Part shown: positions 5,291 through 41,691 of the stretch, in pieces | Layout: every line of letters starts with the position of its first letter | Position numbering within the stretch: the stretch's first letter is position 1 | Origin: Escherichia coli | Lineage (GTDB): Bacteria > Pseudomonadota > Gammaproteobacteria > Enterobacterales > Enterobacteriaceae | DNA: 64,000 nt | Assembly (NCBI RefSeq): GCF_030013595.1 | Contig: NZ_CP122768.1 | Reading direction: 5' to 3' (one strand) | Notes under the pieces: generated by a model | What the model saw: the letters and a program-made list of their open reading frames with translations, nothing else | What the model was told of the DNA's origin: nothing | Database searches by the model: none | Made by a program: the position numbers and the translations under genes

Positions 5291-5300
5291 GGGCTACTCC

Positions 5301-12707: not shown

Positions 12708-12726
12708 CCCGTTGTAAAGTGAGGAT

Positions 12727-23794: not shown

Positions 23795-23805
23795 GGAGTA
23801 AGATA

Positions 23806-24825
23806 ATGAAAAGCATTTTAATTGAAAAACCGAATCAACTGGCAATTATCGAACGCGAAATACCCATCCCGTCAGCGGGTGAAGTACGAGTAAAAGTGAA
23901 ACTTGCCGGAATTTGTGGTTCAGATAGCCATATTTATCGTGGGCATAATCCTTTTGCGAAATATCCGCGCGTCATTGGTCATGAATTCTTTGGCGTCATT
24001 GATGCAGTGGGTGAAGGCGTGGAAAGCGCCAGAGTCGGTGAACGCGTTGCTGTCGATCCGGTGGTCAGCTGTGGGCATTGCTATCCGTGCTCTATAGGTA
24101 AGCCGAACGTTTGTACGACACTGGCTGTATTAGGTGTGCACGCTGACGGTGGTTTCAGTGAATATGCCGTGGTGCCGGCAAAAAATGCGTGGAAAATTCC
24201 TGAAGCAGTGGCCGATCAATATGCGGTGATGATCGAACCTTTTACCATTGCGGCTAACGTTTCCGGTCATGGTCAACCGACTGAAAATGATACCGTTCTG
24301 GTTTACGGTGCCGGTCCAATCGGCCTGACGATCGTTCAGGTATTAAAAGGCGTCTATAACGTTAAAAATGTGATTGTTGCCGATCGCATTGATGAACGAC
24401 TGGAAAAAGCGAAAGAGAGCGGGGCAGACTGGGCGATTAATAACAGCCAGACACCGCTTGGCGAGATTTTCGCTGAAAAAGGCATAAAGCCGACATTAAT
24501 TATCGATGCGGCTTGTCATCCTTCTATCCTGAAAGAGGCTGTAACGCTGGCTTCTCCGGCGGCACGTATTGTATTGATGGGGTTCTCCAGTGAACCGTCT
24601 GAAGTGATTCAGCAAGGAATTACCGGAAAAGAACTCTCTATTTTTTCTTCACGCTTAAATGCAAATAAATTCCCGGTCGTTATCGACTGGTTAAGTAAAG
24701 GGTTAATTAAACCAGAAAAATTAATTACCCATATGTTTGATTTCCAGCATGTTGCTGATGCCATTAGTTTATTTGAACAGGATCAAAAACATTGCTGCAA
24801 AGTCTTACTCACTTTTTCTGAATAA
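23806..24825 (+). CDS. rspB: starvation-sensing protein RspB (zinc-dependent alcohol dehydrogenase family)
   Basis: 339 aa; GHEFFG zinc-ADH motif; overlaps rspA end. Confidence 0.9.
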   Translation: MKSILIEKPNQLAIIEREIPIPSAGEVRVKVKLAGICGSDSHIYRGHNPFAKYPRVIGHEFFGVIDAVGEGVESARVGERVAVDPVVSCGHCYPCSIGKPNVCTTLAVLGVHADGGFSEYAVVPAKNAWKIPEAVADQYAVMIEPFTIAANVSGHGQPTENDTVLVYGAGPIGLTIVQVLKGVYNVKNVIVADRIDERLEKAKESGADWAINNSQTPLGEIFAEKGIKPTLIIDAACHPSILKEAVTLASPAARIVLMGFSSEPSEVIQQGITGKELSIFSSRLNANKFPVVIDWLSKGLIKPEKLITHMFDFQHVADAISLFEQDQKHCCKVLLTFSE

Positions 24826-24882
24826 TACCAATAACGGCGAGTAAGTAGTACGCATCTTACCTCTTTTTTAGAGATAACCATT

Positions 24883-24975
24883 ATGACAATAGAAAAACAC
24901 GAAAGAAGCACTAAGGATTTGGTGAAAGCAGCAGTATCGGGATGGCTGGGCACAGCGCTTGAATTTATGGATTTC
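24883..24975 (+). pseudogene. ydfJ: 5' fragment of MFS transporter gene ydfJ truncated by prophage integration
   Basis: MTIEKHERSTKDLVKAAVSGWLGTALEFMDF then divergence; in E. coli K-12 the Qin prophage occupies this locus. Confidence 0.55.
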
Positions 24976-25012
24976 AAGAGTCATACGTGTCAACTATTTG
25001 ATAAATATTAAA

Positions 25013-25801
25013 TTAATTTTTCATTGCTTCGTTATGGGGCATGGTTGGGGCAAACTCGCTTAACTGTGTATTTAACAAAGCTACCTGTGCATTATTGTTT
25101 TCAGACATCCATTTTCCGTATACCTGAAATACCATTTGCGCATCTGCATGGCCCATCTGGTTTGCTATAAATGCCGGGTTAGCACCAGCTGTCAGCGACC
25201 AGCAGGCATAAGTATGTCTCGACTGATATGATTTTCGATGGCGGAGTCCGGCACGTTTTATCGCTGCGTCCCACATCTGCCTTATTGAGTCAACGGTAAA
25301 ATGGTCACCATAATTTTTTACTCTCGCTGACACTTCAGGTTGAAAAACAAAGGTGCATTTATGTTTTTCTGTTCTGCCATACTCTCTGAGGTGAACATCA
25401 ATGATATGCTCTTTGCTCAGTCTCGTTAATGTCATCTGACTCCGGAGAGCGTCGATTGCTGGCTTAATAAGATGAATGACCCGATTGGTTCCCGCCTGTG
25501 TTTTTGGTACCGTGAAACGGTCTTTTGCTAAATTTCTCCTGATCATCATTGTTCCATTTTTCAGATCTATGTCCTCCCATCCAAGTGCACACAGCTCACC
25601 AGGGCGAACGCCAGTATAAACAGAAACACACCATAAATTTTTGGCTTGCTGATTTCTGCACGCATCGATAAGACGGATGAATTCCTCCCGCGAAAGAGGA
25701 TCCGGAATGGTTCTTGATTCCTTTAATGGCGAGATCCCCTTAAACGGGTTATCTGCCAGGTAACCGTTATCAACACCAAACTGGAACACGGCGTTAAGAT
25801 T
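25013..25801 (-). pseudogene. prophage tyrosine integrase, C-terminal catalytic part (gene split by IS66)
   Basis: R...HxxR...Y catalytic domain (LRHRKSYQSRHTYA, MGHADAQM..VYGKW); reading frame continues to the IS junction at 25801. Confidence 0.85.
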
Positions 25802-25831: not shown

Positions 25832-27403
25832 TTACTGAGAGCTCAGATCAACTTTCCAGGGCAACAGATCGCGTACCCGGTTTGCCGGCCAGTCCTGGAT
25901 ATGTTCAATGACGTAACGCAGCCACTTTTCTGGCTCCACATTGTTCAGACGGCATGTGCCGATCAGCGAGTACAACACCGCCGCATGTTCACCACCGCTG
26001 TCGGAACCCGCGAACATCCAGTTTTTCCGGCCTACGGCCACTCCCCGTAAGGCGTTCTCTGCGATGTTGTTGTCGATTTCCACCCAGCCATTACTGCAGT
26101 ACACGTTCAGTGCATCCCACTGTTTCAGCAGGTATGCGAACGCTTTTGCCGTATCTGAGTGACGCGACAGTGTTTTCATCTGTTGCTGTATCCAGTCATA
26201 CAGTGACTGCATCAGTGGCGCGGCTCTGGCTTTTCTTGCCGCCAGACGCTGTTCTGCTGAACAGCCCCGGACCTCTGCCTCGATGGCATACAGTTCACCG
26301 ATACGCTGCAGGGCTTCCGTGGTGATGTAGGTGGGCGCTCTTGCATGCACATCGTGGATTTTTCTCCGGGCATGAGCCATACACGCGGCTTCCGTTATTC
26401 TGCCGGATTCGTATAACGCCCGGTAACCACCGTAAGCATCGGCCTGAAGCACACCGCTGTAACCGGCCAGGTGATTTTGTGGATGGATACCTTTCCGGTC
26501 CGGACTGTACGCGAACCAGACCGCCGGGGGCATCTGTGAACCGGCGTTACGGTCATCACGGACGTAGACCCACAGCCGGGCTGTCCGGGTTTTACCGCTG
26601 CCCGGCTCCTGGACCGGGACGGGGATATCATCAGCATGGACTTTACCGGGCATCAGCACATACTGGCGCAGGACGTCATACAGCGGCTCCAGCAGTTCAG
26701 CAACAGCACCTGTCCAGCGCCCCAGTGTGGCACGGCTCAGCTCCACTCCCTGACGACGGTATATTTCTGACTGGCGGTATAACGGCAGATGGTCTGCATA
26801 TTTCCCGGTGACAACATGGGCCAGAAGCCCCGCTCCGGCATAACTGCGTGCAATGGGTTTTGAAGGTACTGGTGCCTGTACGATATGGTCGCACCGGCAA
26901 CAGGCCTGTTTCGGACGTTGTGTTTCGATAACCTTAAAGGCGCTGCTGATAAGCTCCAGTTGCTCTGACACATCACATCCCAGAGAACTGAGTTCACCAC
27001 CACAGGCAGGACAGCATTCCTCTTCCGGCCGGATAACCCGGGTTTCACGGGGAAGTGAGGCCGGTAACGGTTTACGGGCTGAAGACTGGCGCAGGGCGGA
27101 TGGCAGTACCGGGTCATATTGCTCACCCAGCGTTTCCGCCATTTCTTCCTGAAGTGCGCTGATTCGCTCCTGTGCTTCCTGTATCTGCCGTTCGGTTTTT
27201 GCACGAAGTTTTTCTGAGCTTTTACCGAACTGCATACGTTGCAGTTTCGCAACCAGCGCCTTCAGCCGGTTGATTTCGGAAGCATAAGCCGCCACCCGCT
27301 GTGAGAGCAGGCGGTTGTATTCAGCCATCTGGCGGATGGTGTCCTGTTGCGTCTGCAACAGTGCCCGCAGGCGGGCGTTCTCATGAGCAAGTGAGGTGTC
27401 CAT
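25832..27403 (-). CDS. IS66-family DDE transposase (Orf3/TnpC)
   Basis: 523 aa identical to 12727..14298 product. Confidence 0.85.
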
Positions 27404-27422
27404 ATCCTCACTTTACAACGGG

Positions 27423-27770
27423 TTATATGCGGATTCCAGCGCGTTCCGTTCGTTTCGGGTGCTTCCAGTTGATACCTTCAAGAAGCATGGATAACTGAGC
27501 CGGAGTAAGGTGCACCTTGCCGTCACGGGTGACTGGCCAGACGAAGCGGCCCCGCTCCAGGCGTTTGGTGAAGAGGCACAGTCCGTCACTGTCAGCCCAC
27601 AACACTTTTATCTGGTCACCCCGGCGTCCGCGGAAGATGAACAGGTGTCCGGAGAACGGGTCATCCTTCAGGACGTTCTGAACTTTTGATGCCAGGCCGT
27701 TAAAGCCATTTCGCATATCGGTGATACCTGCAACCAGCCAGATACGCGAACCTGCAGGGAGAGATATCAT
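27423..27770 (-). CDS. IS66 Orf2 (TnpB-like)
   Basis: 115 aa identical to copy 1. Confidence 0.8.
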   Translation of the reverse strand: MISLPAGSRIWLVAGITDMRNGFNGLASKVQNVLKDDPFSGHLFIFRGRRGDQIKVLWADSDGLCLFTKRLERGRFVWPVTRDGKVHLTPAQLSMLLEGINWKHPKRTERAGIRI

Positions 27771-28417
27771 CAGTGGCTGCTCCCTTTTATTTCGCGGATA
27801 AGTGTCTGTAATAACGCCGGCGTCAGTTTACCTTTAAGCCTGAGAGTTCCGGCCGGCAGAACCAGCTCACAACACAGACTGTCGGACGGTGTATTTATCT
27901 GCTCTGGTTCCTGTGCGGGGGCCGGGATTTTATTATCCGGCTCCGGCGTTAACGTCACGGGAAGCAGTGCCGGCATATTTTTTCCGGAAGGCAGCAGGCC
28001 ACCTTTCCGGTATTGATGGCGCCAGTTGAAGAGCAGGTTATCGTTGATTCCGTTTTCCCGGGCGATCTGCGCCACACAGGCTCCGGGCTGCAGTGACTGC
28101 TCCACTAAGGCGATTTTAAACTCATAAGGGAAGTTGGGCCGCCGGGGACGTTTTTTTACCACGGGGGCTTCGGATATAACGGTGCTTTCAGGACGTACGA
28201 CTGGTACCGTGGAAAATTGTCCGTAAAGGCAGGCATCAAGTTCCTGCTCCGACATGCCTGCGGGCAAAGGCCACGAAAGGCCAGCTCTCCGAAAGCGCAC
28301 GAACATACTACAAACTGTTGATTTTGGTACACCCAGGCGACGCCCGGCCACAACCCGGGGTAAATGTTCTTCAAAGTGAAGACGTAAAGCTTCAGTGATC
28401 CAGGTCCGGTGTTTCAT
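27770..28417 (-). CDS. IS66 accessory protein (orf1/TnpA-like)
   Basis: 215 aa identical to copy 1. Confidence 0.8.
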   Translation of the reverse strand: MKHRTWITEALRLHFEEHLPRVVAGRRLGVPKSTVCSMFVRFRRAGLSWPLPAGMSEQELDACLYGQFSTVPVVRPESTVISEAPVVKKRPRRPNFPYEFKIALVEQSLQPGACVAQIARENGINDNLLFNWRHQYRKGGLLPSGKNMPALLPVTLTPEPDNKIPAPAQEPEQINTPSDSLCCELVLPAGTLRLKGKLTPALLQTLIREIKGSSH

Positions 28418-28501
28418 ACGATAGTGTCCATTAAAAAATGATGGACATTATTTTTGTAGAGCCGGAGGAAACAGACCAGACGGTTTAAATGAGCCGGTTA
28501 C

Positions 28502-29016
28502 TTAAGATTTGTCATGTAATTATTTACAGTTACAGCCGATCTACCTGGTTGTGTAACAATATAGTTACTTTTGGGGCTCTGGTATCCAGTCAGTAGCTCT
28601 TTACGAACCTCCAGTAATTTTTCTTTATTAATCGATGAGGCAAGATTTTTTTCACCGATTATGCTCAGGATATTTTTGATGACGGCACGGTATGTGTTGA
28701 GTGATGTTTTTGCGACTTCAGTTTCTTTCAGTGCCAGAAATTTTTCAGCCAGTTCTTTTATGGTTAAATCTTGTCGGGTCTCACCAAATTTTTCCAGATT
28801 GCGTGAGGAGGGAAACTGTTTTGCATAGTCGAAAACACCAGTTTTTATTGCGTAACAAACAGAGGCGCGTAGCTCACCTGCAACGCGCCTGTTTTTTGCT
28901 GTGTCAGGAACCCCCAGGTTTTCCCTGACTCTTACGCCTTTATAAACAAACCAGATACGTAATTTCCCTCCATGGTTTTCCACGCCTGTCGGATATTTCA
29001 TTTCAACTTCTCTCAT
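28502..29016 (-). pseudogene. prophage tyrosine integrase, N-terminal part
   Basis: 172-aa N-terminal arm/core-binding region ending at IS66 junction. Confidence 0.8.
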
Positions 29017-29359: not shown

Positions 29360-31831
29360 TTAAGAATCAGCCTGACTCGGGATCAGTTTTTGCCAGATAA
29401 CTGAAACGTATTTTGCTTGGTAACGGGCGTCATCAAGTGCATTATGGCGCTCACCTTCGAATGGAATAGCCGTTCTGGCATCGAAATCTATGGCTTTCCC
29501 CAGCTCAACGATTGTGCGTACATCGCGATCGTTGTAGTAACGCCACGGGCAGGGGATCCCCTGCCGTTCGTATGAACGGCGCAAAATCGTGTTGTCGAAG
29601 TTGGCTCCATTTCCCCAAACCTGAACAAAAAATTCACCGGAGTTTTCGTCGATAAATTCCCGCAATTGTAACAGTGCATCATCTAACGGGATTTCATCGG
29701 TCATAATGGCAGATTGTGCTTCGCGTGATTGCTTAAGCCACCATTTAATGGTGTCCCGATCAATGACTCCGCCAGCAGTTTCCAGATCGATAGTCTTACT
29801 AAATTCCGGTCCTATATCTCCGGTTTGCGGATCGAAAAATATTGCACCTATTGAGATGATCGGTGCATCAGGATTTTTTCCCATGGTTTCAAGGTCGATC
29901 ATTAGATGGTCACACGTCCTGCTGGTGGATGTGATTTTGTGATGACCGTTCACCTTAATTGAGTGATCTGCCGTCTCGCCAGTTTCATTATCGCTATTGT
30001 GATGCTGATTGCCGCCAGTGTTCTCCTTGTGTGGATGTTCAGCGCCTTCCATTTCCTCCGGATCATCTTCCTGAACTTCAACCTGATACTCTTCATCGAA
30101 TGTTTCTTGGTATGTTGCGTCGCCCATCACCGCGCCACAATCAGGGCAGTTGCCGCCGCCGGTCTGACCGCAGGCGGTGCAGACTTTTTCCACTTCCTGT
30201 TGCGCCACTGGTTCAGGCTGTTTCGTTTCTGGCTCGTTTTGTAACGCATTTGGGCTGTTTTGTTCCGCTTTTTGGTAGTTCCGTTCCGATTCATGCTGGT
30301 TCTGGTTCACAGAATCGCGGGTCTGGATCCCCTTAACCCATTTCGGATCATTCGGGTCACTAATCCCTTCAACAAATTCACCATGTGATGCAGCAAGCAA
30401 CTTATCGGCGTCAGGCTGGCTGATATTGGCTGCCTGCATAATTTTGTTTACTTCGTCAGCGGTAACTTTTATCGGCTCTGGTTGTTCTGAATCTTCAGCG
30501 GTATCTACATTTTGCGGTAAGCCCGTGTATGTGCCATTTTTTCGGGCAAAATATTCTTCTTTTGTGATTTCAGTGGCGCCAGCAGCCAGTGCCTTATCTA
30601 GACCAGAAAGTTTGTTTGCGCGACCGTATTTTTCTCCGTCCTTATCTGCGAAGAGGAAATAGAACGGCCCCTCACGCTCTACAGATGGTTCAGCTTCCGG
30701 CGCGGTTTCATTTTTTGGGATATCAGATACCTCAGTTTCCACTGCATCAGTTTGTGTTTCTGATGACTGGAGAACATCAACAGTGCCCAGGTCTGTTTCT
30801 TCATTCTCAAACACGCCCTTTGTCGTCAGGTATTCGCAGATATATTTGTTCAGTGCTACGGGATCTTTGTGAATGTCGATCGGACGCTCACGGACAAGGC
30901 CAAAAATAGTTTGGCGGTCGTAGCGAAGGGCATCAGGCTGTTTGCGCATTGATGCCGAGATACGCTTCCAGTCTTCGCGGTCGTTGTCGATAACTTCTTT
31001 TTTTGCCCAGCGATGGATGCTGCCGTCAATGTTTCCGGCATCCACATCACCAGGCCAGAGAGCGTAGGCCAGTTCGTCATCCAGTGTTTTCCATGTCTGC
31101 TTGTATTCGCGATGAATGGCAGCAATGACCGGGCTGATTTTTCCTGTTGAATTTTCAGTGTACTGTTGATTGGCTCTGGCGCGGGCGAGATCAACAACAG
31201 ACGTGTATTTTCCGGTTTCCTTGCGTTCACCTTCGCGACGTTTTTTCCAGATGCGCATCTCTGCCTGAATTTCGGGCCATTTAGCACCAGGAATACATTT
31301 ATGCTTAACCCACCCAATGGCGTGCAACTTAAGCTCCGGATACATGGCGTTAACTTCTGGCATTTTCATCAACGCTTCAACGATATGTCCGTCGAATGTT
31401 GCCATGTCTTCCTGCAACAATTCCTGTGCGCTAATAACCATATCAACGGTGATGTTTTCACATGTGTCGAACTTAACCATGACAGCGTTCTGTACTTCAG
31501 GGGCCAGCTTGTCAAAAGTGACGTTCATCGGATCGGATTCAGTCTCAACCGGGACAAAAGAAGCAGACTCCTCATCCCAGCGGTTTTCCTGCATATATTC
31601 AGCATCCCATGAATCGAGGGCAGGGCGGGGTATGCCAGGTTTATCCTCGCAGACAATAAATTTATAAGCGCAGTCCTGAGCAGCCGGATAATGTTCCAGG
31701 AACTGCCAGTGAAATTTTGCTCGAGCACGGCGTTCGTCGCCAGCTTCAATGGCTGTGGCTACAGCCACAGCGCCTTCTTCCCTTGTTGCCAGTTCGTCAG
31801 GAATAGCGGCGCAAATAAAGACTTTACTCAT
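29360..31831 (-). CDS. prophage exonuclease-family protein (C-terminal DEDD-type 3'-5' exonuclease fold)
   Basis: 823 aa; C-terminus has DLET...GxNxxFD...H..LDDA exonuclease motifs; acidic central region. Confidence 0.65.
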   Translation of the reverse strand: MSKVFICAAIPDELATREEGAVAVATAIEAGDERRARAKFHWQFLEHYPAAQDCAYKFIVCEDKPGIPRPALDSWDAEYMQENRWDEESASFVPVETESDPMNVTFDKLAPEVQNAVMVKFDTCENITVDMVISAQELLQEDMATFDGHIVEALMKMPEVNAMYPELKLHAIGWVKHKCIPGAKWPEIQAEMRIWKKRREGERKETGKYTSVVDLARARANQQYTENSTGKISPVIAAIHREYKQTWKTLDDELAYALWPGDVDAGNIDGSIHRWAKKEVIDNDREDWKRISASMRKQPDALRYDRQTIFGLVRERPIDIHKDPVALNKYICEYLTTKGVFENEETDLGTVDVLQSSETQTDAVETEVSDIPKNETAPEAEPSVEREGPFYFLFADKDGEKYGRANKLSGLDKALAAGATEITKEEYFARKNGTYTGLPQNVDTAEDSEQPEPIKVTADEVNKIMQAANISQPDADKLLAASHGEFVEGISDPNDPKWVKGIQTRDSVNQNQHESERNYQKAEQNSPNALQNEPETKQPEPVAQQEVEKVCTACGQTGGGNCPDCGAVMGDATYQETFDEEYQVEVQEDDPEEMEGAEHPHKENTGGNQHHNSDNETGETADHSIKVNGHHKITSTSRTCDHLMIDLETMGKNPDAPIISIGAIFFDPQTGDIGPEFSKTIDLETAGGVIDRDTIKWWLKQSREAQSAIMTDEIPLDDALLQLREFIDENSGEFFVQVWGNGANFDNTILRRSYERQGIPCPWRYYNDRDVRTIVELGKAIDFDARTAIPFEGERHNALDDARYQAKYVSVIWQKLIPSQADS

Positions 31832-31924
31832 TTTGTTTTAACCTCATGACAGATTTAAGGATGAACAAATCCCTGCCATTGCTGGCATATAAGAATGAAA
31901 CCGGATATTTATTACGGAACTGTT

Positions 31925-32116
31925 TTAAAGACCTGCCGGGATTTCGATATTATCCTGGTGAATAACTTTATCGACCGGGTAACAGTTACCGGGAATTTTC
32001 TGTTCGGTTGCTGCAGTCATACACTCCTGCATTGTCCTGTGAACACTGTCTGCAATATCAACTGGCTCTCCGGAAACAAGAAAAACTGTCAGAACAAGCG
32101 CAAATGCTGAATTCAT
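31925..32116 (-). CDS. ydfD: YdfD small lysis/toxic peptide
   Basis: 63 aa from MNSAFALVLTVFLVSG matching recalled YdfD; overlaps dicB stop. Confidence 0.7.
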   Translation of the reverse strand: MNSAFALVLTVFLVSGEPVDIADSVHRTMQECMTAATEQKIPGNCYPVDKVIHQDNIEIPAGL

Positions 32117-32301
32117 TGTGTACATCCTTTTGGCATCAGACGTAAACGAGCCAGCATTGAAACAATGCATATTTTATTTAATAGCTCCCGTTCTTGTTTT
32201 CTCTTGTTAATGGCATCTTCAGTAAATACAGGGTTACTGATAGTGACACCAATTTCAAAACAACCTTCAGACGTATTAACGTTTGGTAATAACGTTTTCA
32301 T
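32113..32301 (-). CDS. dicB: cell-division inhibitor DicB
   Basis: 62 aa MKTLLPNVNTSEGCFEIGV... matching recalled DicB. Confidence 0.85.
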   Translation of the reverse strand: MKTLLPNVNTSEGCFEIGVTISNPVFTEDAINKRKQERELLNKICIVSMLARLRLMPKGCTQ

Positions 32302-32470
32302 TATCGCGTCCTCAACAATGAATTTTGTGATGCAGTGCCTGGTGCCTCCAGGTGACGTTAACCAGTTAACAATTAACGCCGGATACAGAGAATCCACCCA
32401 TAACACTGTTTTTGGTTTTAACTGTTCCGCGTGCGCTTAGCCGCATTCACCGCATCACAAAATTCACTTT

Positions 32471-32528
32471 AAAAACGGCGGCAGAGCAGTCACGGAGTAA
32501 AACTGATACCGCCAAACGTCACCAGAAA
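32471..32528 (-). ncRNA. dicF: DicF small regulatory RNA (ftsZ antisense)
   Basis: Minus-strand sequence TTTCTGGTGACGTTTGGCGGTATCAGTTTTACTCCGTGACTGCTCTGCCGCCGTTTTT matches recalled DicF; located upstream of dicB. Confidence 0.8.
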
Positions 32529-32803
32529 ATTGATAACAGAGGGCGTTGCAGCGGGGTTGTCACTTAAGCGTATGGTCAACCTGACAACTCGGTGTCCTCA
32601 ACGGGGAAGGAATAACCCCGCCATACTTACCGCCGCGCCATTTCGCGGGTTGCCACAACCGGAAGCGCACGGTCGAATTAAATTTAACGACACCGTACAG
32701 TGAGACGAACTTCGCCGTGCGCTTTCGTGTTGTGTGCCTGCTTTTAACCACGTCAGGCGAGGTGGTATCCTTCTTATCCCGAATAACCAAGAAGGAAATC
32801 TAT

Positions 32804-33004
32804 ATGACTAAAGAAGAATTTGTCTCTTATATTTTTGATAAAAAGGTTGAAATGTATGCCGCTACTTACGGGTCCTGTAATCCTCTGAATAAACCAGAGG
32901 GGAAAGATGATTTCGACAAAATTTACCGCTTCTTGGAGGACCGCTATATCAAAAGGTTAGAGGACGCAGGGATCAAATCCCCAGTGAAGTCACCATTGTC
33001 CTGA
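32804..33004 (+). CDS. hypothetical 66-aa protein, opposite strand to dicB operon
   Basis: ATG with RBS AAGGA in an AT-rich patch; no family recognised. Confidence 0.4.
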   Translation: MTKEEFVSYIFDKKVEMYAATYGSCNPLNKPEGKDDFDKIYRFLEDRYIKRLEDAGIKSPVKSPLS

Positions 33005-33350
33005 GAACTTGCAGGACGTCATGATCGTAACTTCCATCCAAACCGCGACGGCAAATTGCTTCTCGTATTACCGGAAGCAGTTCGCTGGAAATCTCGGTGC
33101 ATATTTCACCTGATAATACGCCTGGCTCAAGTGAGAATATTGGTGAACTTACGGTCTTGGTCTCGACAGTTTCAGAGTCAGTGCCAACATTATAAAGCTC
33201 AACGAAAGCGGTCTTGATTTTCCGGGCCAGATCTTTTGCTGGCTCGCTTGCAATATCTTTCCCGATTTCTCGCAGCACAGAATGCAATGTATGAGCTGCT
33301 GTTTTCTGTACATCAGACGGTAAATCTTTAAATTCCATCGTCAGCCTCAT
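32973..33350 (-). CDS. hypothetical prophage protein (dicB operon)
   Basis: 125-aa ORF between ydfA-like and dicF. Confidence 0.5.
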   Translation of the reverse strand: MRLTMEFKDLPSDVQKTAAHTLHSVLREIGKDIASEPAKDLARKIKTAFVELYNVGTDSETVETKTVSSPIFSLEPGVLSGEICTEISSELLPVIREAICRRGLDGSYDHDVLQVLRTMVTSLGI

Positions 33351-33502
33351 CAGTCAGTGTTTCTGGCTAACCAGCAACGCGCGCCAGATTCGGTTTTAAA
33401 CGTTTTGCTTTTGGTATACGTCATCGCGGTGAACGTGCCGTCCTGGTTGGGGAACACGCCACATACCAGAGATTCGCTGTTGCCAAGATCGATAGTATCC
33501 AT
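33350..33502 (-). CDS. ydfA: YdfA-like small protein
   Basis: 50 aa from MDTIDLGN..., first gene of dicB operon. Confidence 0.6.
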   Translation of the reverse strand: MDTIDLGNSESLVCGVFPNQDGTFTAMTYTKSKTFKTESGARCWLARNTD

Positions 33503-33615
33503 GCTGACCTCATTTCCCCTTAACGCCGGGGTAGCGGAACTGTTTGCTGAGAACACCGTGCGGTGTCTTGATGGAAAGTAATTTAGAATAACCTAACATA
33601 AGAGGCAAGTGTTTT

Positions 33616-33635
33616 TTGTTAGATTAGTCTAACAA
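33616..33635. promoter_or_regulatory. palindromic operator TTGTTAGA-N4-TCTAACAA (dicB-operon promoter side)
   Basis: Perfect 8-bp inverted halves with 4-bp spacer; second copy at 34128-34146. Confidence 0.6.
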
Positions 33636-33670
33636 AAAGAGTGGGCGCAACTAATCACTTGAAAAGAATG

Positions 33671-34078
33671 TTATTTTATTGATTTATTTTTACGCGCTTT
33701 AAGCATTTCTTCGAAGAGTTTGTTGAAGTTTTCTACTCTTGCGCGCATTTCAGACAGCAAGGCTTCCTGCTCGGAAGATGGAAGAGCATCGAATAATTCG
33801 ATCAATTCTTTGTGGTTGGGAGTTAGCTCTGTTTCCACATGAAGTTCTTGTGCCGGCACTGGTGCCTTGTCTTCGTCACCAAACATTAGCCATGTAGGTG
33901 AGCACTTCAGAGCATCCGCTAAAGCAAACAATCGTTTTCCGACTGGCTGGGTTTCGTCTCTTTCCCATTGTGAAATTGTGACGTGAGCAACCCCAGCGAG
34001 GCGCGCAGCTTCTCGTTGTGTTAAGCGTAATTCTTTTCGTCGCGCCAGAACTCGCTGGCCTAGGGTTCTTGTATCCAT
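33671..34078 (-). CDS. dicA: DicA-like HTH (XRE-family) repressor
   Basis: 135 aa; N-terminal HTH LTQREAARLAGVAHVTISQWERDET; C-terminal part close to recalled DicA. Confidence 0.75.
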   Translation of the reverse strand: MDTRTLGQRVLARRKELRLTQREAARLAGVAHVTISQWERDETQPVGKRLFALADALKCSPTWLMFGDEDKAPVPAQELHVETELTPNHKELIELFDALPSSEQEALLSEMRARVENFNKLFEEMLKARKNKSIK

Positions 34079-34127
34079 AGTTAGGTAATTCTAATTTTTC
34101 TTGACTTAGGTATCCCGCGCACAATAA

Positions 34128-34146
34128 TGTTAGAAAAGTCTAACAA
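34128..34146. promoter_or_regulatory. palindromic operator TGTTAGA-N4-TCTAACA in dicA/dicC divergent promoter region
   Basis: Same half-sites as 33616-33635; lies between divergent regulator genes. Confidence 0.6.
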
Positions 34147-34155
34147 TAGGAGGCT

Positions 34156-34386
34156 TTGATGCTTAAAGCTGACGCAATTACTTTTTTTGGCAGCAAAACA
34201 AAGCTTGCCAATGCCGCAGGAGTGAGACTGGCAAGTGTTGCTGCTTGGGGGATACTGGTTCCTGAAGGTCGCGCGATGCGTCTACAGGAGGCATCTGGCG
34301 GGGAGCTTCAGTATGATCCCAAAGTTTATGACGAATATCGTAAGACGAAGCGGGCGGGGCGGTTGAACAATGAAAATCACTCCTGA
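34156..34386 (+). CDS. dicC: DicC-like Cro-type regulator
   Basis: 76 aa; C-terminal half EGRAMRLQEASGGELQYDPKVYDEYRKTKRAGRLNNENHS matches recalled DicC. Confidence 0.75.
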   Translation: MMLKADAITFFGSKTKLANAAGVRLASVAAWGILVPEGRAMRLQEASGGELQYDPKVYDEYRKTKRAGRLNNENHS

Positions 34387-34891
34387 ACAGGCTCGTGAGG
34401 CTCTGGATGCCTGGATATGTCGACCAGGAATGACACAGGAGCAGGCGACGATATTAATCACTGAAGCATTCTGGGCTTTGAAAGAGCGCCCGAACATCGA
34501 TGTTCAGCGTGTCACAGATGAAGGTGGCGCGGTTGATCAGCGAGCGCTTGGCGTTAATCGAGTGAAGATATTCGAACGCTGGAAGGCTATCGACACTAGG
34601 GATAAGCGTGAAAAGTTCACGGCGCTAGTGCCTGCAATTATGGAGGCTATCCGGATTAATGATTTCAGGTTGTATCGTGAAATTAGTGACGGAAAAAGCA
34701 TCACGTACATGATCGCCGGGTTAAACAAAGAATATGGCGATGTGGTGGAGTCCGGACTGCTTTTTGCTGATCCTGCCGTAGTGGATCGTGAAACTGACGA
34801 ACTTATAGAAAAAGCAATTGCTTTCAAACTTGCGTATCGACTGCAATACCAACAAAAAGCTGGATGGAATTATGAGCCTTCTTTTTGCTGA
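34370..34891 (+). CDS. hypothetical early-region protein (CII/YdaT-position)
   Basis: 173-aa ORF overlapping dicC-like stop. Confidence 0.45.
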   Translation: MKITPEQAREALDAWICRPGMTQEQATILITEAFWALKERPNIDVQRVTDEGGAVDQRALGVNRVKIFERWKAIDTRDKREKFTALVPAIMEAIRINDFRLYREISDGKSITYMIAGLNKEYGDVVESGLLFADPAVVDRETDELIEKAIAFKLAYRLQYQQKAGWNYEPSFC

Positions 34892-35837
34892 ACGCCCACT
34901 GGTTATAAACACACAGCTTGCGATGAAGATTGGCTTAAATGAAGCCATTGTGTTGCAGCAGTTGCATTACTGGTTGAGAGATACCAATTCCGGCATGGAA
35001 TGTGATGGTGTTCGCTGGATTTACAACACAACGGAACAATGGCTGGAACAGTTCCCATTCTGGCCAGAGTCAACGTTAAAGCGCGCGTTTGCAAGTCTGA
35101 AAACGCTGGGGCTTTTGCGTTGTGAAAAGCTCAATAAATCAAAGCGCGATATGACCAATTTCTACACGATCAACTATGGGAGCGAGCTTTTAGATGGTGG
35201 CAAATTGAACGAATCCATCGGTTCAAAATGCGCCGCTCCATCAGGTCAAAATGACACGATGGAAGAGGTCAAAATGAAACGCTCCATTGGTTCAAAACGA
35301 CCCAATGTCATCGGGTCAAAATGGCCTGATGATCTTACAGAGAATACAACAGAGATTACTACAGAGAATAAAAACACTTTTCGTCCGGAAGCTTCGCAAC
35401 CGGACCCGCAGACCGCTGAACAGGATTTTTTAACCCGGAACCCCGACGCGGTTGTGTTTAGTGCGAAAAAACGCCAGTGGGGTAGCAGGGAGGATTTGGC
35501 GTGTGCGCAGTGGATTTGGGGGCGGATCGTGAACCTTTACGAACAGGCTGCCAGCGACGATGGAGAGATCATGCGACCAAAAGAGCCTAACTGGACAGCC
35601 TGGGCCAATGACGTGCGCACAATGCGGATGCTGGATGGCAGAAGCCACAGACAAATTTGCGAAATGTTTGGTCGGGTACAGCGAGATCCATTCTGGGTAA
35701 AAAACATCATGAGCCCGTCAAAACTCCGCGAAAAATGGGACGAACTGGTCATCCGCTTGGGACGTTCACCTGTACAGCGTTGTGTGAATCATATTTCTGA
35801 ACCGGATACAGAAATTCCGCCTGGTTTCAGGGGATAA
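34872..35837 (+). CDS. replication initiation protein (lambda O-like) with internal iterons
   Basis: 321 aa; repeated SIGSK/VIGSK peptide motifs encoded by direct DNA repeats around 35210-35330. Confidence 0.65.
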   Translation: MSLLFAERPLVINTQLAMKIGLNEAIVLQQLHYWLRDTNSGMECDGVRWIYNTTEQWLEQFPFWPESTLKRAFASLKTLGLLRCEKLNKSKRDMTNFYTINYGSELLDGGKLNESIGSKCAAPSGQNDTMEEVKMKRSIGSKRPNVIGSKWPDDLTENTTEITTENKNTFRPEASQPDPQTAEQDFLTRNPDAVVFSAKKRQWGSREDLACAQWIWGRIVNLYEQAASDDGEIMRPKEPNWTAWANDVRTMRMLDGRSHRQICEMFGRVQRDPFWVKNIMSPSKLREKWDELVIRLGRSPVQRCVNHISEPDTEIPPGFRG

Positions 35838-35877
35838 GTGTTGATTTCAGGTCATGAGGTAATTTTAAGGAGGACTT

Positions 35878-36273
35878 GTGGCAAAAGTTTTTACACAGGA
35901 AGAGCGGGAAAAAATTAAAGAGCAGGTGGTCGAACTTGTGCGCCAGAGCGGTCGCGAGACATTACGACAGTTGGAAGCTAAAACAGGTGCGACAAGATAT
36001 CTGATGAGCATTCTTGCCAGAGAGCTGGTTGCCAGTGGTTATGTATACAACTCCGGCTACGGGTTATTCCCGTCTGAACAGGCACGAAAGGACTGGCAAA
36101 ATGCCCGCAAAAAACTCTCTAGGGCGAAGGTGAAGAAACCCGCTGTGGTTGATCCGGACCTTATCTGGTCACTACCTGATGGAGAAATACGTCGCTACGA
36201 CAGTCGTCTAAACATAATCTGTCGCGAGTGCCGGAAGAGCGAAGTTATGCAGCGCATATTGTCGTTTTATTAG
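35878..36273 (+). CDS. hypothetical protein
   Basis: 131-aa ORF with RBS AAGGAGG. Confidence 0.5.
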   Translation: MAKVFTQEEREKIKEQVVELVRQSGRETLRQLEAKTGATRYLMSILARELVASGYVYNSGYGLFPSEQARKDWQNARKKLSRAKVKKPAVVDPDLIWSLPDGEIRRYDSRLNIICRECRKSEVMQRILSFY

Positions 36274-36615: not shown

Positions 36616-38103
36616 GTGGACATTAGAGACTGGCTACCAGAATTTCAAGTTTCAGCAGAAACAGATCGGGACTTACAGACCTATTTTTTTAAGCTACCGG
36701 CGATAAAGGATATTATTGAAAGTAGGGCTTGGTTGGTTCTTGGAAGAAAAGGTACTGGTAAAACAGCCATTTATGAACACCTTAGAAGAGGAAAACCAGC
36801 CAATCTCAACGGGTTTTACTCAGTATGTCTAAATTTTAGTGACTATCCATGGCCAGCCCATCAACTTTACAAGGATGCAATGGCTGGAGAACTTTCCGCT
36901 TATCAAAAAAGTTGGATGTATCTTTTTTATATTAAGGCATTATCTAAACTTATTGAAATAAAAAATGATGCTGGAGAGACTTTAAACAAAGATCTAACGT
37001 GGGCACATAATTATATCAAAACTATCTTTGGTAGTCCCGACCCAACTCTTAGGGAGGTTTTGTTTTCAAAAATAACCAGATTAAAAACCATAAAAGGGCC
37101 CAGTGCTGGTCTTAATGAAGTATCATTGGACGCAGGTGAAATTTCGTTAGAGGAAGTTGCTGAGAATGCTCAGCTAAAGCAAAAGCTAAGAGCTAATGCT
37201 TTCACATTGCTTACGTATTTTGAAAAAATTTTTAAAGATAACATTGGTAATGAAAAAATAATTATCGCCCTTGACCAATTAGACGAAAACTGGCTAGAGG
37301 GGCAAATTGAAGAATATAGTAAGGTTTTAATAAATCTGCTAAATGTCTGTAGAAACATAGCATCTGATGAACGCCTCAATGATAAATTAAAAGTCATTCC
37401 CTTCCTACGAACGGATATTTATCATTCTTTGAAATTCAATGATAAAAACAAATTATTGCAAGATAGTGCTATCATAATCTCATGGAATGAAAATAATCTA
37501 AACGATATGTATTATGAGAGGATAAAGAAATACAAACCTAATGATCTCATATTAGATGACGAAAAGGACAGATCTGGGAAAGTATTTGAGGTTTCATTCG
37601 TTAGGCAGGGGACTCCTCCATTTAAATATATATGTCGCCGTTCTTTCTTTAGGCCTAGGGATATTATTGTCTACTTCAACAAAATTAGGGCATGTCATAA
37701 AAATAATGTCTCAGGTCTTTACACTTCCAATGAGCTTTATGAAGCTGACCGTGAAGCATCTATAAGTGTGTACAATGAGGTGATTGATGAATGGTCCAAC
37801 CAATTCCCTGAAATTGAGAACTTACTAACTGTTCTTCAAACTATCCAAGTAGAAACATTCGATTTTAATGATTTCTCCGAGAAGTGCCGTAATGAATTTG
37901 CAGGTATTTCTGATGGGGTGATACGTCAATATATCAACTTCCTGTTTGATAACTCACTTATCGGACAAAAAAAACAAGGTAGATGGGAATACGTAAGTAG
38001 TTTGCCTAACTTAAAAATTAATCTACAAAATGAGTTTAGGACACATCATGCTTTAAAATACAGGTTGCATTTAATAGAAAGCAGACCGAGCCAAAATATT
38101 TAG
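36616..38103 (+). CDS. uncharacterised P-loop NTPase (candidate defence/abortive-infection moron)
   Basis: 495 aa from GTG with RBS AAGAGG; Walker A GRKGTGKT, Walker B-like IIIALDQLDE; gene and upstream region markedly AT-rich. Confidence 0.6.
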   Translation: MDIRDWLPEFQVSAETDRDLQTYFFKLPAIKDIIESRAWLVLGRKGTGKTAIYEHLRRGKPANLNGFYSVCLNFSDYPWPAHQLYKDAMAGELSAYQKSWMYLFYIKALSKLIEIKNDAGETLNKDLTWAHNYIKTIFGSPDPTLREVLFSKITRLKTIKGPSAGLNEVSLDAGEISLEEVAENAQLKQKLRANAFTLLTYFEKIFKDNIGNEKIIIALDQLDENWLEGQIEEYSKVLINLLNVCRNIASDERLNDKLKVIPFLRTDIYHSLKFNDKNKLLQDSAIIISWNENNLNDMYYERIKKYKPNDLILDDEKDRSGKVFEVSFVRQGTPPFKYICRRSFFRPRDIIVYFNKIRACHKNNVSGLYTSNELYEADREASISVYNEVIDEWSNQFPEIENLLTVLQTIQVETFDFNDFSEKCRNEFAGISDGVIRQYINFLFDNSLIGQKKQGRWEYVSSLPNLKINLQNEFRTHHALKYRLHLIESRPSQNI

Positions 38104-38451
38104 CTTACATCCATCTCCATTAAGAAATCTTGCTATTGTTCTTATGGATCGTCTTTCTGACTGATTTCATATTGGCGAGGTAAAGGTAGTTAAGTAGAAT
38201 GGCTGCGGGTGCTTGAGGCTATCTGCCTCGGGCATGAACACCAAAGGCAGATAGAGAAAAGCCCCAGTTAACATTACGCGTCCTGCAAGACGCTTAACAT
38301 TAATCTGAGGCCAATTTCATGCTAGACACATGTAGGTTAGCCTCTTACGTGCCGAAAGGCAAGGAGAAGCAGGCTAGTGTTAACACCAAGCTGTAATGTC
38401 CCCTTTGAACCATTCTAAAATGTCCCCAGACAATTCTCTGGGGGATTTTTC

Positions 38452-39792
38452 ATGATCAAAGAGACTGTTACGATGAGTCATAAGGAACTCCACCGACTTC
38501 AGATTATTCAGGAGTCAATTAATCGACATATTACTCAGGAACAAGCTGCGGCACGCATTGGCATTTCTATTCGGCAGGTTAAACGTCTGGTGCAACGGTA
38601 TAGAAATGAAGGGCCTTCTGGTCTGGTTTCCCACCGACGTGGAAAGCGTCCTAATAATTCCTTTTCTACTGAATTCAGAGCAACAGTAATTTCACTCCTC
38701 AAAGGCCGTTACGCTGATTTTGGACCTACGTTTGCGTGCGAAAAATTGCGCGAGATACACGGTTTATCTTTATCCGTTGAAACTCTCAGAAAGTGGATGA
38801 TAGAAGAGGGGTTATGGCGTGAACGCCGTCGTAAAATTGCCCGTATATATCAACGCCGCATGCGACGACCATCTTACGGTGAACTGATCCAGATTGATGG
38901 CTCACCTCATGACTGGTTTGAAAATCGAGGCCCCAGATGTACACTGATCGTTTTCATTGATGATGCCACCAGTGCGTTGATGGCGTTGCGTTTTGTGCCT
39001 GCTGAAACAACCCGGGCTTACATGGAAACCCTCCGGGGTTACCTTAATGATCATGGCGTACCGCTCGCTCTCTACTCTGATAGACACAGTATATTCAGGG
39101 TAAATAACCCAGAGCGGGAAGGTGAGCTGACCCAGTTCACTCGTGCGATAAAGACACTGGGCATCGAGCCAATCCATGCCAACAGCCCGCAGGCAAAAGG
39201 GCGGGTAGAGCGCGCCAATCAGACACTACAGGACAGGCTGGTCAAAGAAATGCGGCTTCAGAATATCAGTGATATTGAAACAGCAAATGCATGGTTGCCG
39301 ACCTTTATTGAAGCCTATAACAACCGGTTCGCTACGTCGCCTCGTACTACTGATAATGCTCATCTTGATGAGCACCATTCTGAAGAGGAACTGGGTTATA
39401 TCTTCAGCCTACAGGCGAAGCGCGTTCTGTCTAAAAATCTCACTTTCCAGTACAAAAGCAGTGCGTTTCAGGTACGCAGTGAGGGCCGGGGATATCGACT
39501 TAGGCATTCGGTTGTTACTGTATGCGAGAACTTTGACGGTGAAATTAACGTTCTGTATGACGGGAAAGCGCTGGGCTGGGAAAAGTATGTTGATGGCCCG
39601 GAGCCTATACCACTGGATGATGAAAAGAGTGTCCATGAACGAGTGGATAATGCCCGTATTGATTTACGCTCAAAATACTATGTTAAACCTAAAGCTGACC
39701 ATCCCTGGCTTACGCGCCGAACGCAAAGTCATCAGCAAGTTAAGCCCCCGAAGTTACCTAAAAAGAAGCCTGATCCCGATAAAAAAGATTGA
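38452..39792 (+). CDS. DDE transposase, ISNCY/IS1202-group-like
   Basis: 446 aa; N-terminal HTH and integrase-core (DDE) region; basic C-terminus; element ends not resolved. Confidence 0.65.
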   Translation: MIKETVTMSHKELHRLQIIQESINRHITQEQAAARIGISIRQVKRLVQRYRNEGPSGLVSHRRGKRPNNSFSTEFRATVISLLKGRYADFGPTFACEKLREIHGLSLSVETLRKWMIEEGLWRERRRKIARIYQRRMRRPSYGELIQIDGSPHDWFENRGPRCTLIVFIDDATSALMALRFVPAETTRAYMETLRGYLNDHGVPLALYSDRHSIFRVNNPEREGELTQFTRAIKTLGIEPIHANSPQAKGRVERANQTLQDRLVKEMRLQNISDIETANAWLPTFIEAYNNRFATSPRTTDNAHLDEHHSEEELGYIFSLQAKRVLSKNLTFQYKSSAFQVRSEGRGYRLRHSVVTVCENFDGEINVLYDGKALGWEKYVDGPEPIPLDDEKSVHERVDNARIDLRSKYYVKPKADHPWLTRRTQSHQQVKPPKLPKKKPDPDKKD

Positions 39793-40185
39793 AACCAAGA
39801 TCGATTCGGTTGAGTGCATATCCATTCATAGGGTAGATTCTTAAGTCGCGTTTCTGGTGTTCATTTTCGGGTGGTTTGTTACTTGTTTTACCGGGGATAT
39901 GCCAGAAACGCGCTGAGTCAGTCTGGGCGGTGCGCGTAATGAGGCGTTATGGTAAATAGCCTATGCTAATGTCCGCTAAGAGCAAGAAGCGGAAGTTGGC
40001 AGTTTTGTGGACTGTCCCCACAAAAGTGACTACAGAAATAGTTGCAATTCATAATTGATCATGGGTTGTCAGTTAAACTCGTGGCGATTTAAATAGACTA
40101 ATTGGGAGTGCGTCCATTACTTATATCTTGTAATGTTAACTATCAGAAATGATACAAAGATAATATGTCTTTAAAGAAAAGGCTG

Positions 40186-40214
40186 ATGGCGAAAAGTGGC
40201 CCGATGAGGGCCAC
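40186..40214 (-). terminator. Rho-independent terminator downstream of flxA
   Basis: Minus-strand hairpin GTGGCCCUCAUCGGGCCAC followed by UUUUC. Confidence 0.5.
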
Positions 40215-40228
40215 AATACGGCTGTCAC

Positions 40229-40561
40229 TTAGACGTAAATATCAATGGTGCCAGCGGTATTTGTATCGTCTTTTTTCTCTTCTTTTTTATCAGGCTGAAC
40301 TGTCGCGTCTTCATTCTTTTTCTCTGCCTGCTGCCTTAACAACTGCTCCAGTTGAGCCCAGAGGCTTTCAATTTGCTTCTGTACCAATGCAGCCATTTCT
40401 TTTTTCTGCTGTGTCGTCATCCCCTCTTCCGATGAGATTTTCCCAAGCTTTTCAGTCAGCACCTGAATTTGTCTTGTGATTTTGGCTATTTCTGATGTTC
40501 CTTCCGGGGCGGAGTTGTTTGAAATAACGGTTGAGGTATTTCCCTGAATTGTGACAGACAT
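40229..40561 (-). CDS. flxA: FlxA (FliA-regulated prophage protein)
   Basis: 110 aa MSVTIQGNTSTVISNNSAPEG... matching recalled FlxA. Confidence 0.8.
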   Translation of the reverse strand: MSVTIQGNTSTVISNNSAPEGTSEIAKITRQIQVLTEKLGKISSEEGMTTQQKKEMAALVQKQIESLWAQLEQLLRQQAEKKNEDATVQPDKKEEKKDDTNTAGTIDIYV

Positions 40562-40584
40562 AGATTTCTCCTTTTAAAAAAGCA

Positions 40585-40611
40585 CTATCGGCATGCACAA
40601 AAAAATCTTTA
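40585..40611 (-). promoter_or_regulatory. sigma-28 (FliA) class promoter for flxA
   Basis: Minus strand TAAAGATT-N11-GCCGATAG versus consensus TAAAGTTT-N11-GCCGATAA, 24 nt upstream of flxA start. Confidence 0.7.
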
Positions 40612-41093
40612 ATCGTATTTCTTGTGTCATTAATTGTTTGATGTTCAGATTGTTTTCCTCGCGGGCTGGCGCGCCTCAGAAAGTAAAGCTTGTTGACAGG
40701 GGTAAACGTTCGGCAATAATTTTCTGCCGCATGCGGGTGTTGCATAAAACGTGTTACGTTCCTTTATCGACAGGTCAGGTCACCGCTCACCCGCCGACGA
40801 GAAAGCAACACTGACATGCTAAAGCAAAAAATAGATGAATAAGTTGAGTTGTGCATATGTAGCCTGACCGTCACAAAGTATATGGTGTCTGTACCAGTAA
40901 GATGATGGCCGGACTCTTTAAAAACGAGCTGACCTGCACAATACAGGATGGACTTAGCAATGGCTGCTCCTGGCAGAAAGCGGACAGTGATCACCGTTCT
41001 TACGACTACTTTCTGACTTCCTTCGTGACTTGCCCTAAGCATGTTGTAGTGCGATACTTGTAATGACATTTGTAATTACAAGAGGTGTAAGAC

Positions 41094-41333
41094 ATGGGTA
41101 GCATTAACCTGCGTATTGACGATGAACTTAAAGCGCGTTCTTACGCCGCGCTTGAAAAAATGGGTGTAACTCCTTCTGAAGCGCTTCGTCTCATGCTCGA
41201 GTATATCGCTGACAATGAACGCTTGCCGTTCAAACAGACACTCCTGAGTGATGAAGATGCTGAACTTGTGGAGATAGTGAAAGAACGGCTTCGTAATCCT
41301 AAGCCAGTACGTGTGACGCTGGATGAACTCTGA
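41094..41333 (+). CDS. relB: RelB antitoxin
   Basis: 79 aa MGSINLRIDDELKARSYAALEKMGVTPSEALR... Confidence 0.9.
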   Translation: MGSINLRIDDELKARSYAALEKMGVTPSEALRLMLEYIADNERLPFKQTLLSDEDAELVEIVKERLRNPKPVRVTLDEL

Positions 41334-41620: not shown

Positions 41621-41691
41621 ACCAAAGCATGACATCTCTGTTTCGCACCGAAGGTGACACTTCTGCTTTGCGTTGACAGGAGAAGCAGGCT

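Follow-up and report, generated by a model that had tools for sequence, protein, structure and literature searches.

Does the palindrome-flanked DicA-like repressor gene of the Escherichia coli DNA analysed here govern a complete Qin-type division-inhibition operon, and does its product read the same operators as its counterpart in strain K-12? The DNA is a stretch of 64 kb (the window; contig NZ_CP122768.1), and its region 31925-34146 had been interpreted, from the letters alone (the sequence-only reading), as a complete dicA/dicC-dicF-dicB-ydfD module with paired palindromic operators. We conclude, with a probability of roughly 0.9, that this region comprises the immunity switch of a lambdoid prophage of the Qin family together with its early-left (PL-type) operon, and that a DicA-like repressor acts at inverted-repeat operators there. 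In kind the finding is already known: it is an ordinary repressor/anti-repressor switch joined to the division-inhibitor operon dicA/dicC-dicF-dicB-ydfD, in a common allele. The gene identities, the homology, the operator positions and the co-variation of the operators with the helix-turn-helix (HTH) motif of the repressor are established here.

The repressor gene and its flanking palindromes

The dicA-like gene (33671-34078, minus strand) encodes a protein of 135 amino acids that matched the NCBIfam DicA family (NF007257) over residues 1-134 with 224.7 bits against a cut-off of 101, and that also gave an HTH_3 match (E 1.5e-14). The closest solved structure to its N-terminus is the N-terminal domain of the P22 c2 repressor (E 1.3e-18). 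No peptidase family (S24) match was found in the domain search, and the protein is short, without a RecA-cleavable domain. The open reading frame (ORF) map and the comparison with K-12 showed that the dicB operon comes directly after dicA and that dicA is divergent from the gene of a DicC-like Cro protein (34159-34386, plus strand). The latter protein, 86% identical to K-12 DicC, matched NF007282 (165.2 bits, cut-off 130) and P22_Cro (PF14549; 47.9 bits against 30.2, E 1.1e-12).

Both palindromes that the sequence-only reading had placed at the operon promoter (33616-33635) and in the divergent promoter region (about 34128-34146) are present in the sequence. The first, TTGTTAGATTAGTCTAACAA, is a perfect 8-N4-8 palindrome that extends to a perfect 11-N4-11 palindrome at 33613-33638, with the core TGTTAGATTAGTCTAACA at 33617-33634; we call it OL1. 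The second, OR1 (ATGTTAGAAAAGTCTAACAA, 34127-34146), is a perfect 7-N4-7 palindrome whose outermost base is A and not T. When the dicC-dicA intergenic regions of window and K-12 were aligned, OR1 fell column for column on the K-12 operator Oc (TTGTTAGTCATAACTAACAA), and OL1 aligned with an imperfect K-12 palindrome (TGTTAGCTATAGCATACA) that has two mismatches. In K-12, DicA binds Oc in vivo, where it represses dicC and activates dicA, and binding is lost when one A in the CTAACA half of Oc is changed to C (PMC3441716). The alignment with K-12 could have revealed palindromes that are not conserved at DicA-regulated promoters; it set the upstream copy instead on a site shown to bind DicA.

Searching the window with the strict motif TGTTAG-N6-CTAACA returned exactly these two sites, and none of 100 shuffled sequences contained any. 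The relaxed core GTTAG-N6-CTAA was found four times in the 64 kb, against an expectation of 0.28, and all four sites lie within 33583-34144: OL2 (33583-33597), OL1 (33618-33633), OR2 (34080-34094) and OR1 (34129-34144). The two operators first proposed are therefore to be replaced by four related sites, two recognisable ones on each side of dicA; motif and palindrome searches of the window and related loci found nothing convincing as a third operator on either side. Both additional sites are weaker and operator-like: OL2 reads TGTTAGGTTATTCTAAAT on the minus strand (33581-33598), and OR2 (AGTTAGGTAATTCTAATT, 34079-34096), directly upstream of the dicA ATG, is the positional counterpart of the K-12 site named Oa.

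Irrespective of sequence, a few perfect 7-N4-7 palindromes should arise in 64 kb (about 64000/4^7), and on that count the palindromes could be functionless chance matches. Here, however, one half-site occurs twice, 511 bp apart and on either side of a repressor gene, the upstream copy has as its homologue an operator defined by experiment, and the positions are kept across the 80 loci described below. The shuffles, the alignment with K-12 Oc and this positional conservation led us to reject a chance origin, the probability of which we consider negligible.

OL1 lies 36 nt past the dicA stop codon, and its RNA folds as an 11-bp stem (-10.5 kcal/mol, z = -3.1) with A and U runs beside it, as an RNA hairpin terminator of dicA transcripts would, in place of a protein-binding operator. 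Yet any DNA palindrome folds in this manner by construction, the same half-site is found at OR1, where a terminator is unneeded, and the K-12 version of OL1, with its two mismatches, is imperfect. The stem is moreover AU-rich, with two G-C pairs, it was not called by the terminator scan, and the palindrome co-varies with the HTH; on these last three grounds termination was rejected as the main role of OL1, and we hold it to be very improbable.

The best promoter-like site of the region, TTGACT-16-AATAAT (34101-34128, plus strand; 10 of 12 consensus matches in the promoter scan), is the PR-equivalent dicCp, with a -10 that touches or overlaps OR1, a position suited to repression of dicC. The predicted PL-equivalent dicBp (33580-33608, minus strand), assigned by alignment with its K-12 counterpart (TTGACC-17-TAATCT), consists of a -35 TTGCCT (33608-33603) that starts 8 nt after OL1, a 17-nt spacer and a -10 TAAATT (33585-33580). 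OL1 is thus just upstream of this promoter and OL2 sits between its -35 and -10, in the spacer and the -10. A study by genomic systematic evolution of ligands by exponential enrichment (gSELEX) lists the dicB operon as the only DicA target, without site data (PMC8249747).

Co-variation of repressor and operators in the DicA family

Viral contigs were scanned with a DicA alignment, which gave 80 loci in 13 N-terminal variant groups, that of K-12 included. The hexamers TGTTAG and CTAACA are invariant in 11 of the 13 groups, and all variants with a TQR helix 2 carry TGTTAG..CTAACA. In the window, in K-12 and in nine other groups, helix 2 reads 'TQR...' and TGTTAG-N6-CTAACA is located at -67 or -68 from the dicA ATG. 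An unbiased choice of the best 7-N-7 palindrome of each intergenic region led to the same positions (-67/-68) in most groups. The groups of the TGTTAG type have one or two more copies at about +36 and +72 after the dicA stop; OL1 is kept at +34 to +39 in these loci and OL2 at +72 in related loci. The central six bases vary freely across the groups (ACTTTT, ATATTT, GTATAT, GCATGT, TCATAA and others).

The L055 group (28 loci) has 'SQAALGKLV' as helix 2 together with the same recognition helix, and it carries TCCTTAG-N6-CTAAGGA at the Oc position; its dicBp sites switch to CTTAG in parallel with Oc. A single locus, L063, with this same helix 2 and recognition helix, carries TCTTAAG-TTTTC-CTAAGA at the Oc position. 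The phage mEp460_ev081 encodes a DicA homolog that is about 51% identical and whose recognition helix reads SGSSISLWESD, and it has ATTGAGAAAACTCAAT at the Oc position and GATGAGAAAACTCAAG at dicBp, with the half-sites TTGAG-AAAA-CTCAA. At least three classes of half-site (TGTTAG, CCTTAG and TTGAG) are thus found at fixed positions, and they track three HTH types (IMG/VR loci L055-L083, and L085, which is mEp460_ev081). The CCTTAG class combines the same recognition helix with a different helix 2 and N-terminal arm, and this comparison of sequences points to a part of the protein other than the recognition helix as the reader of the outer two bases of the operator.

The breakpoints against mEp460_ev081 delimit an exchangeable immunity cassette at about 33586-34255, which takes in dicA with the OL and OR sites and the 5' third of dicC. 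Palindromes and DNA-binding domain change together within a swappable cassette between conserved flanks, which is the classical signature of a lambdoid immunity region. This co-variation supports the interpretation of the palindromes as the operators of the repressor and as positional counterparts of those of K-12.

Operator specificity relative to K-12

The DicA-like protein had been thought to differ from K-12 DicA in its N-terminal HTH while keeping the C-terminus, so that operator specificity might differ from that of K-12 Qin. The two proteins are 57% identical; the first 60 columns of the alignment show 48% identity and the last 60, at the C-terminus, 58%. The contrast between the two ends is therefore real but weak, and the recognition helix is nearly conserved (AHVTISQWER in the window, SHVSVSQWER in K-12). 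The suspected change of specificity was not borne out, as the hexamers TGTTAG/CTAACA are identical and only the central spacer differs.

It could still be argued that the window repressor and K-12 DicA differ in specificity through the inner operator positions or the spacer, by indirect readout, and that the two prophage types are heteroimmune. P22 and 434 repressors read the operator spacer indirectly. The cassette has diverged from that of K-12 (40-80% nucleotide identity, the 5' half of dicA being without a blastn match), the N-terminal domains are 48% identical, and the central 6 bp are ACTTTT or ACTAAT in the window and TCATAA or CTATAG in K-12. Position 7, the innermost of the half-site, is T/A in K-12 and A/T or G/C in the window and most others, that is, a pyrimidine in K-12 and a purine in most non-K-12 variants. 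Against these differences stand the identical hexamers, the bases at which a single change abolishes binding of K-12 DicA, and the nearly identical recognition helix. Loci with an identical window-type DicA also differ in their central bases (ACTTTT, ATATTT, ATCAAT), which argues that these bases are not tightly constrained, and the real switches of specificity in the family (L055 group, L063 and mEp460_ev081) show obvious changes of half-site and HTH. We consider heteroimmunity of the two types improbable, and equally doubt that the central spacer modulates affinity. The DicA alleles that keep TGTTAG may form one cross-repressing immunity group; the alternative, which we consider unlikely, is that the spacer encodes a hidden second layer of specificity that would make the window allele heteroimmune.

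Points that weigh against the switch as described

Five points tell against the conclusion given at the outset. Three operators were named by sequence inspection in K-12, and only Oc bound DicA in vivo while Om and Oa did not (PMC3441716), so that the roles of OR2 and OL2 are uncertain. The OR2 stretch is kept even in the loci of the L055 group, which have a different Oc; this argues that OR2 is not a specificity-determining DicA site, and it may not be specific to DicA. The dicBp promoter, at 8 of 12 consensus matches, fell below the threshold of the promoter scan and was not recovered on the minus strand, and its position therefore rests on homology to K-12. A small ORF antisense to the operon, orf66 (described below), lies within it, and convergent transcription could affect read-through to dicF and dicB. 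Lastly, binding, promoter use, processing and phenotypes are attributed to the window allele by analogy with work on K-12, and would hold to the extent that the two alleles behave alike.

The first two of these points also favour the idea that OR2 and OL2 (GTTAGGTWATTCTAAWT) serve mainly the binding of DicC (Cro), or else act as promoter or ribosome-binding elements, and that OR1 and OL1 are the only DicA operators. OR2 and OL2 are, in addition, nearly alike (89% complementary), and switching in K-12 needs DicC. However, both sites have the GTTAG...CTAA core that defines DicA sites, and in the L055 group the half-site of OL2 follows the change of Oc and becomes CTTAG. A lambdoid Cro and its repressor normally bind common operators, as in lambda and P22, which also speaks against a division of the sites between the two proteins. 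We regard such a division as possible, if somewhat doubtful.

Genes of the dicB operon and neighbouring coding regions

All of the components named by the sequence-only reading (the ydfA-like gene, a 125-amino-acid ORF, DicF, dicB, ydfD and the DicA-like and DicC-like genes) were found where it had put them, as judged by the sequence, the ORF list and the family matches, and curated cut-offs were exceeded by all of the family matches (DicA, DicC, DicB, DUF1391, DUF1482 and Rfam DicF). Downstream of dicA, ydfA, dicF, dicB and ydfD follow in that order on one strand. The ydfA-like gene (33350-33502, minus strand), the first of the operon, encodes a DUF1391 protein of 50 amino acids (PF07151, E 4.3e-27) that is 88% identical to K-12 YdfA. 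The dicB gene (32113-32301, minus strand) encodes a cell-division inhibitor of 62 amino acids, matched over its whole length by PF05358 (residues 1-62 of 62, E 3.3e-40) and 98.4% identical to K-12 DicB. Its stop codon is overlapped by the start of ydfD (31925-32116, minus strand), the last small gene of the dicBF operon, which encodes a lysis protein of 63 amino acids (PF07358, E 7.8e-25) with 96.8% identity to K-12 YdfD; the identical protein of BL21 carries the RefSeq name 'lysis protein YdfD'.

The small RNA DicF had been assigned to 32471-32528 and is present, but the RNA with its terminator hairpin spans 32476-32528 (minus strand), since 52 of 53 positions are identical to K-12 dicF; the coordinate 32471 takes in the T-tail, which reaches about that position. 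The Rfam match (RF00039, 32476-32527, minus strand) scored 72.5 bits against a gathering score of 48 and covers model positions 1-52 of 52, and the 3' hairpin has a predicted folding energy of -16.6 kcal/mol. The DicF precursor region upstream of it (32529-32745, minus strand) lies within a block of 98.2% identity to K-12. Processing of the precursor has been described in K-12 (PMC10448788) and may be expected for the window allele by analogy only.

Downstream of ydfD and in the same orientation is a full-length gene (29360-31831, minus strand) for an exonuclease of 823 amino acids, which has an Rv2179c-like 3'-5' exonuclease domain at its C-terminus (PF16473, E 2.5e-67). Besides dicC, the rightward operon contains genes for an O-like replication protein, a YdaT/CII-like protein and a Ren-like protein. 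Farther away, the antirepressor gene rem (42064-42315, plus strand) belongs to this circuit as well; it was recognised by the similarity of its product to Rem of K-12 (95% identity) and BL21 (97.6%).

Between ydfA and dicF are two accessory ORFs. The first, orf121 (32973-33350, minus strand; 121 amino acids in RefSeq, 125 in the ORF list), belongs to phrog_33007 (E 1.3e-82). The second, orf66 (32804-33004, plus strand; WP_000159335.1), encodes 66 amino acids antisense to the operon, has a good ribosome-binding site and was matched by phrog_34441 over residues 1-66 of 66 (E 1.7e-49); it was absent from the earlier gene list of the operon. The two genes are convergent and overlap by 32 nt at their 3' ends. 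Both PHROG families are without an assigned function, and neither orf121 nor orf66 had a match in Pfam, NCBIfam or PADLOC.

These two ORFs stand in place of ydfB and ydfC of K-12, which are not found between ydfA and dicF in the window. We rejected orf121 as a diverged ydfB or ydfC, as its product resembles neither YdfB nor YdfC, and orf66 likewise showed no relation to either. The cargo between ydfA and dicF varies among loci with an identical DicA, and ydfB and ydfC are accessory genes. The pair of orf66 and orf121 occurs in the functional phage mEp460_ev081 and in only 3 of 84 related loci, and the window copies differ from those of mEp460_ev081 at 0-1 positions, too few for a test of selection. 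A role of orf66, orf121 or the Ren-like protein as a known defence protein was considered and set aside, as none had a PADLOC match.

Distribution and comparison with known systems

The region 31925-34400 was compared by megablast with the complete E. coli genomes (n = 5426). At least 80% of it was covered in 180 genomes and some part of it in 4756, and the window-type immunity cassette was found in 565. Identity was 99.5% in BL21(DE3), REL606 and other derivatives of E. coli B and 99.8% in two pig isolates. The BL21 locus adjoins rspAB, and the window has rspAB-side homology at 23121-25801; the match to E. coli B and this neighbourhood identify the element as a Qin-type prophage with the E. 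coli B allele. Its DicA is identical to WP_000381212.1 of BL21, and the Qin prophage of E. coli B (BL21(DE3), REL606) shares with the window not only this DicA but also the orf121, orf66, YdfA, DicB and YdfD proteins. It differs in that its exonuclease gene is a truncated pseudogene and in that it has neither the Sll1717 ATPase nor the hok/sok insertion described below. The annotation of the BL21 locus consists of ydfD, dicB, two hypothetical proteins, a DUF1391 protein, a 'helix-turn-helix domain-containing protein' and a Cro/CI regulator.

Comparison with K-12 Qin (ydfABC-dicF-dicB-ydfDE) showed the same gene order, orientation and chromosomal neighbourhood, with the TGTTAG/CTAACA half-sites at the same positions, while OL1 has two mismatches in K-12 and is perfect in the window and the immunity cassette has diverged. 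Identity to K-12 is 40-80% over about 34280-33590 and 97-100% outside it. The DicF precursor, dicF, dicB, ydfD and the start of the exonuclease gene (32745-31065) match K-12 at 98.2% (positions 3663-5345 of the K-12 locus, L001), the dicA 3' part, dicBp and ydfA (33789-33359) at 80%, and the ydfX-like gene, dicC and the intergenic region (34649-34066) at 87%. The HTH-coding 5' half of dicA has no nucleotide match, and the segment with orf121 and orf66 (33359-32745) has no counterpart. The exonuclease is represented in K-12 by the pseudogene remnant ydfE, the alignment ending at 31065 where K-12 is cut by IS2, whereas the window has extra insertions, namely the Sll1717 ATPase and insertion sequence (IS) elements. 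The element of the window is thus a more complete Qin relative.

The functional temperate phage mEp460_ev081 (LR597641) matches the window at 30424-33586 (94.7%) and at 34255-35900 (99%). The exonuclease, ydfD, dicB, the dicF region, orf66, orf121 and ydfA of its left operon are shared with the window, as is its right operon from mid-dicC onward; the nucleotides between 33586 and 34255 are unrelated, and a different immunity cassette is present. The layout of immC of Salmonella phage P22 is also that of the window, with a divergent repressor/cro pair whose repressor gene has inverted-repeat operators to its left and right. Residues 1-71 of P22 c2 align with the DicA N-terminal domain at the E value given above, and DicC falls in the P22_Cro family. 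The window differs from P22 in having two recognisable sites per side and not three, in induction by the antirepressor Rem (a function known from K-12) and not by RecA, and in its repressor, which has 135 amino acids and is without the S24 peptidase/RecA-cleavage domain (PMC10448788). A functional analogue is found in phage lambda. The lambda kil gene, an early-left gene of the PL operon under repressor control, blocks FtsZ-dependent division; the effectors are unrelated, those of the window being the small RNA DicF and the MinC-recruiting DicB.

State of the prophage and neighbouring elements

Two IS66-family elements lie in inverted orientation at 11713-14298 (plus strand) and 25832-28417 (minus strand); both have tnpA, tnpB and a DDE transposase of 523 amino acids, with identical Pfam scores. 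The second of them splits the integrase into a catalytic part (25013-25789) and an arm-binding N-terminus (28498-29016), and the prophage has therefore probably lost the ability to excise. Continued repression by DicA would, in that case, matter to the host. Head and tail-size ORFs run on to the end of the window.

Several other features were noted to the right of the switch. A type I toxin-antitoxin locus, hokD/sok, is split into 38128-38376 and 41678-41844 by a 3.3-kb insertion (38376-41678) that encodes a transposase of 446 amino acids (38452-39792); the leader and the Rfam sok match (38207-38373) are parted from the hokD coding sequence (41692-41844), and about 15 bp of BL21 sequence align on both sides of the insertion, which fits a target-site duplication. 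An Sll1717-family P-loop ATPase of 495 amino acids (36616-38103, plus strand; NF047389, 250 bits) is encoded between the Ren-like gene and hok/sok, and the BL21 prophage lacks it; its PADLOC match, PDC-M28C, is weak, and we take it as a candidate moron for defence or exclusion. Two cspA-thermoregulator Rfam matches, at 45251-45643 (158.8 bits) and 48152-48536 (116.3 bits), both on the plus strand, correspond to genes of cold-shock-protein paralogues with their 5' untranslated regions. Qin-type prophages typically carry such paralogues (cspB, cspF, cspI).

Discussion

The arrangement of sites and genes suggests how the switch may work. A dimer of the DicA-like protein, with its HTH of the P22 c2 type and no RecA-cleavable domain, would bind the TGTTAG-N6-CTAACA inverted repeats. 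When bound at OR1/Oc it would cover the -10 and +1 of dicCp, keep dicC and the rightward replication operon off and probably stimulate dicA as well, as in K-12. When bound at OL1, perhaps aided by the weaker OL2 in the promoter spacer, it would block dicBp and so silence the leftward transcript ydfA-orf121-DicF-dicB-ydfD-exonuclease. By analogy with K-12, release of this transcript would allow DicB to recruit MinC to the septum and YdfD to lyse the cells.

The routes of derepression in K-12 are the antirepressor Rem, a bistable flip between DicA and DicC, and heat or urea; dicBp rises 22-fold upon deletion of dicA and 165-fold with Rem, the Qin-encoded Rem causes filamentation that depends on DicB and DicF, and both spontaneous and heat- or urea-induced switching need DicC (PMC10448788). 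The same route of induction would be available to the window prophage, since it encodes at 42064-42315 a Rem protein that is 95% identical to that of K-12.

The additions made here are modest: the coordinates of four operator-like sites and two promoters, the boundaries of the cassette and a three-way table of specificity. The operators and promoters of the BL21/E. coli B allele now have coordinates, and the protein that RefSeq names 'helix-turn-helix domain-containing protein' in this allele can be annotated as DicA. The correspondence of half-sites (TGTTAG, CCTTAG and TTGAG) with HTH types may be of use in planning cross-immunity experiments or in engineering orthogonal repressors. The locus is a prophage switch of the textbook type, under whose control two potent division inhibitors and a lysis protein stay silent, and, if the alleles that keep TGTTAG do form a single immunity group, co-resident Qin-type prophages would silence each other's division inhibitors.

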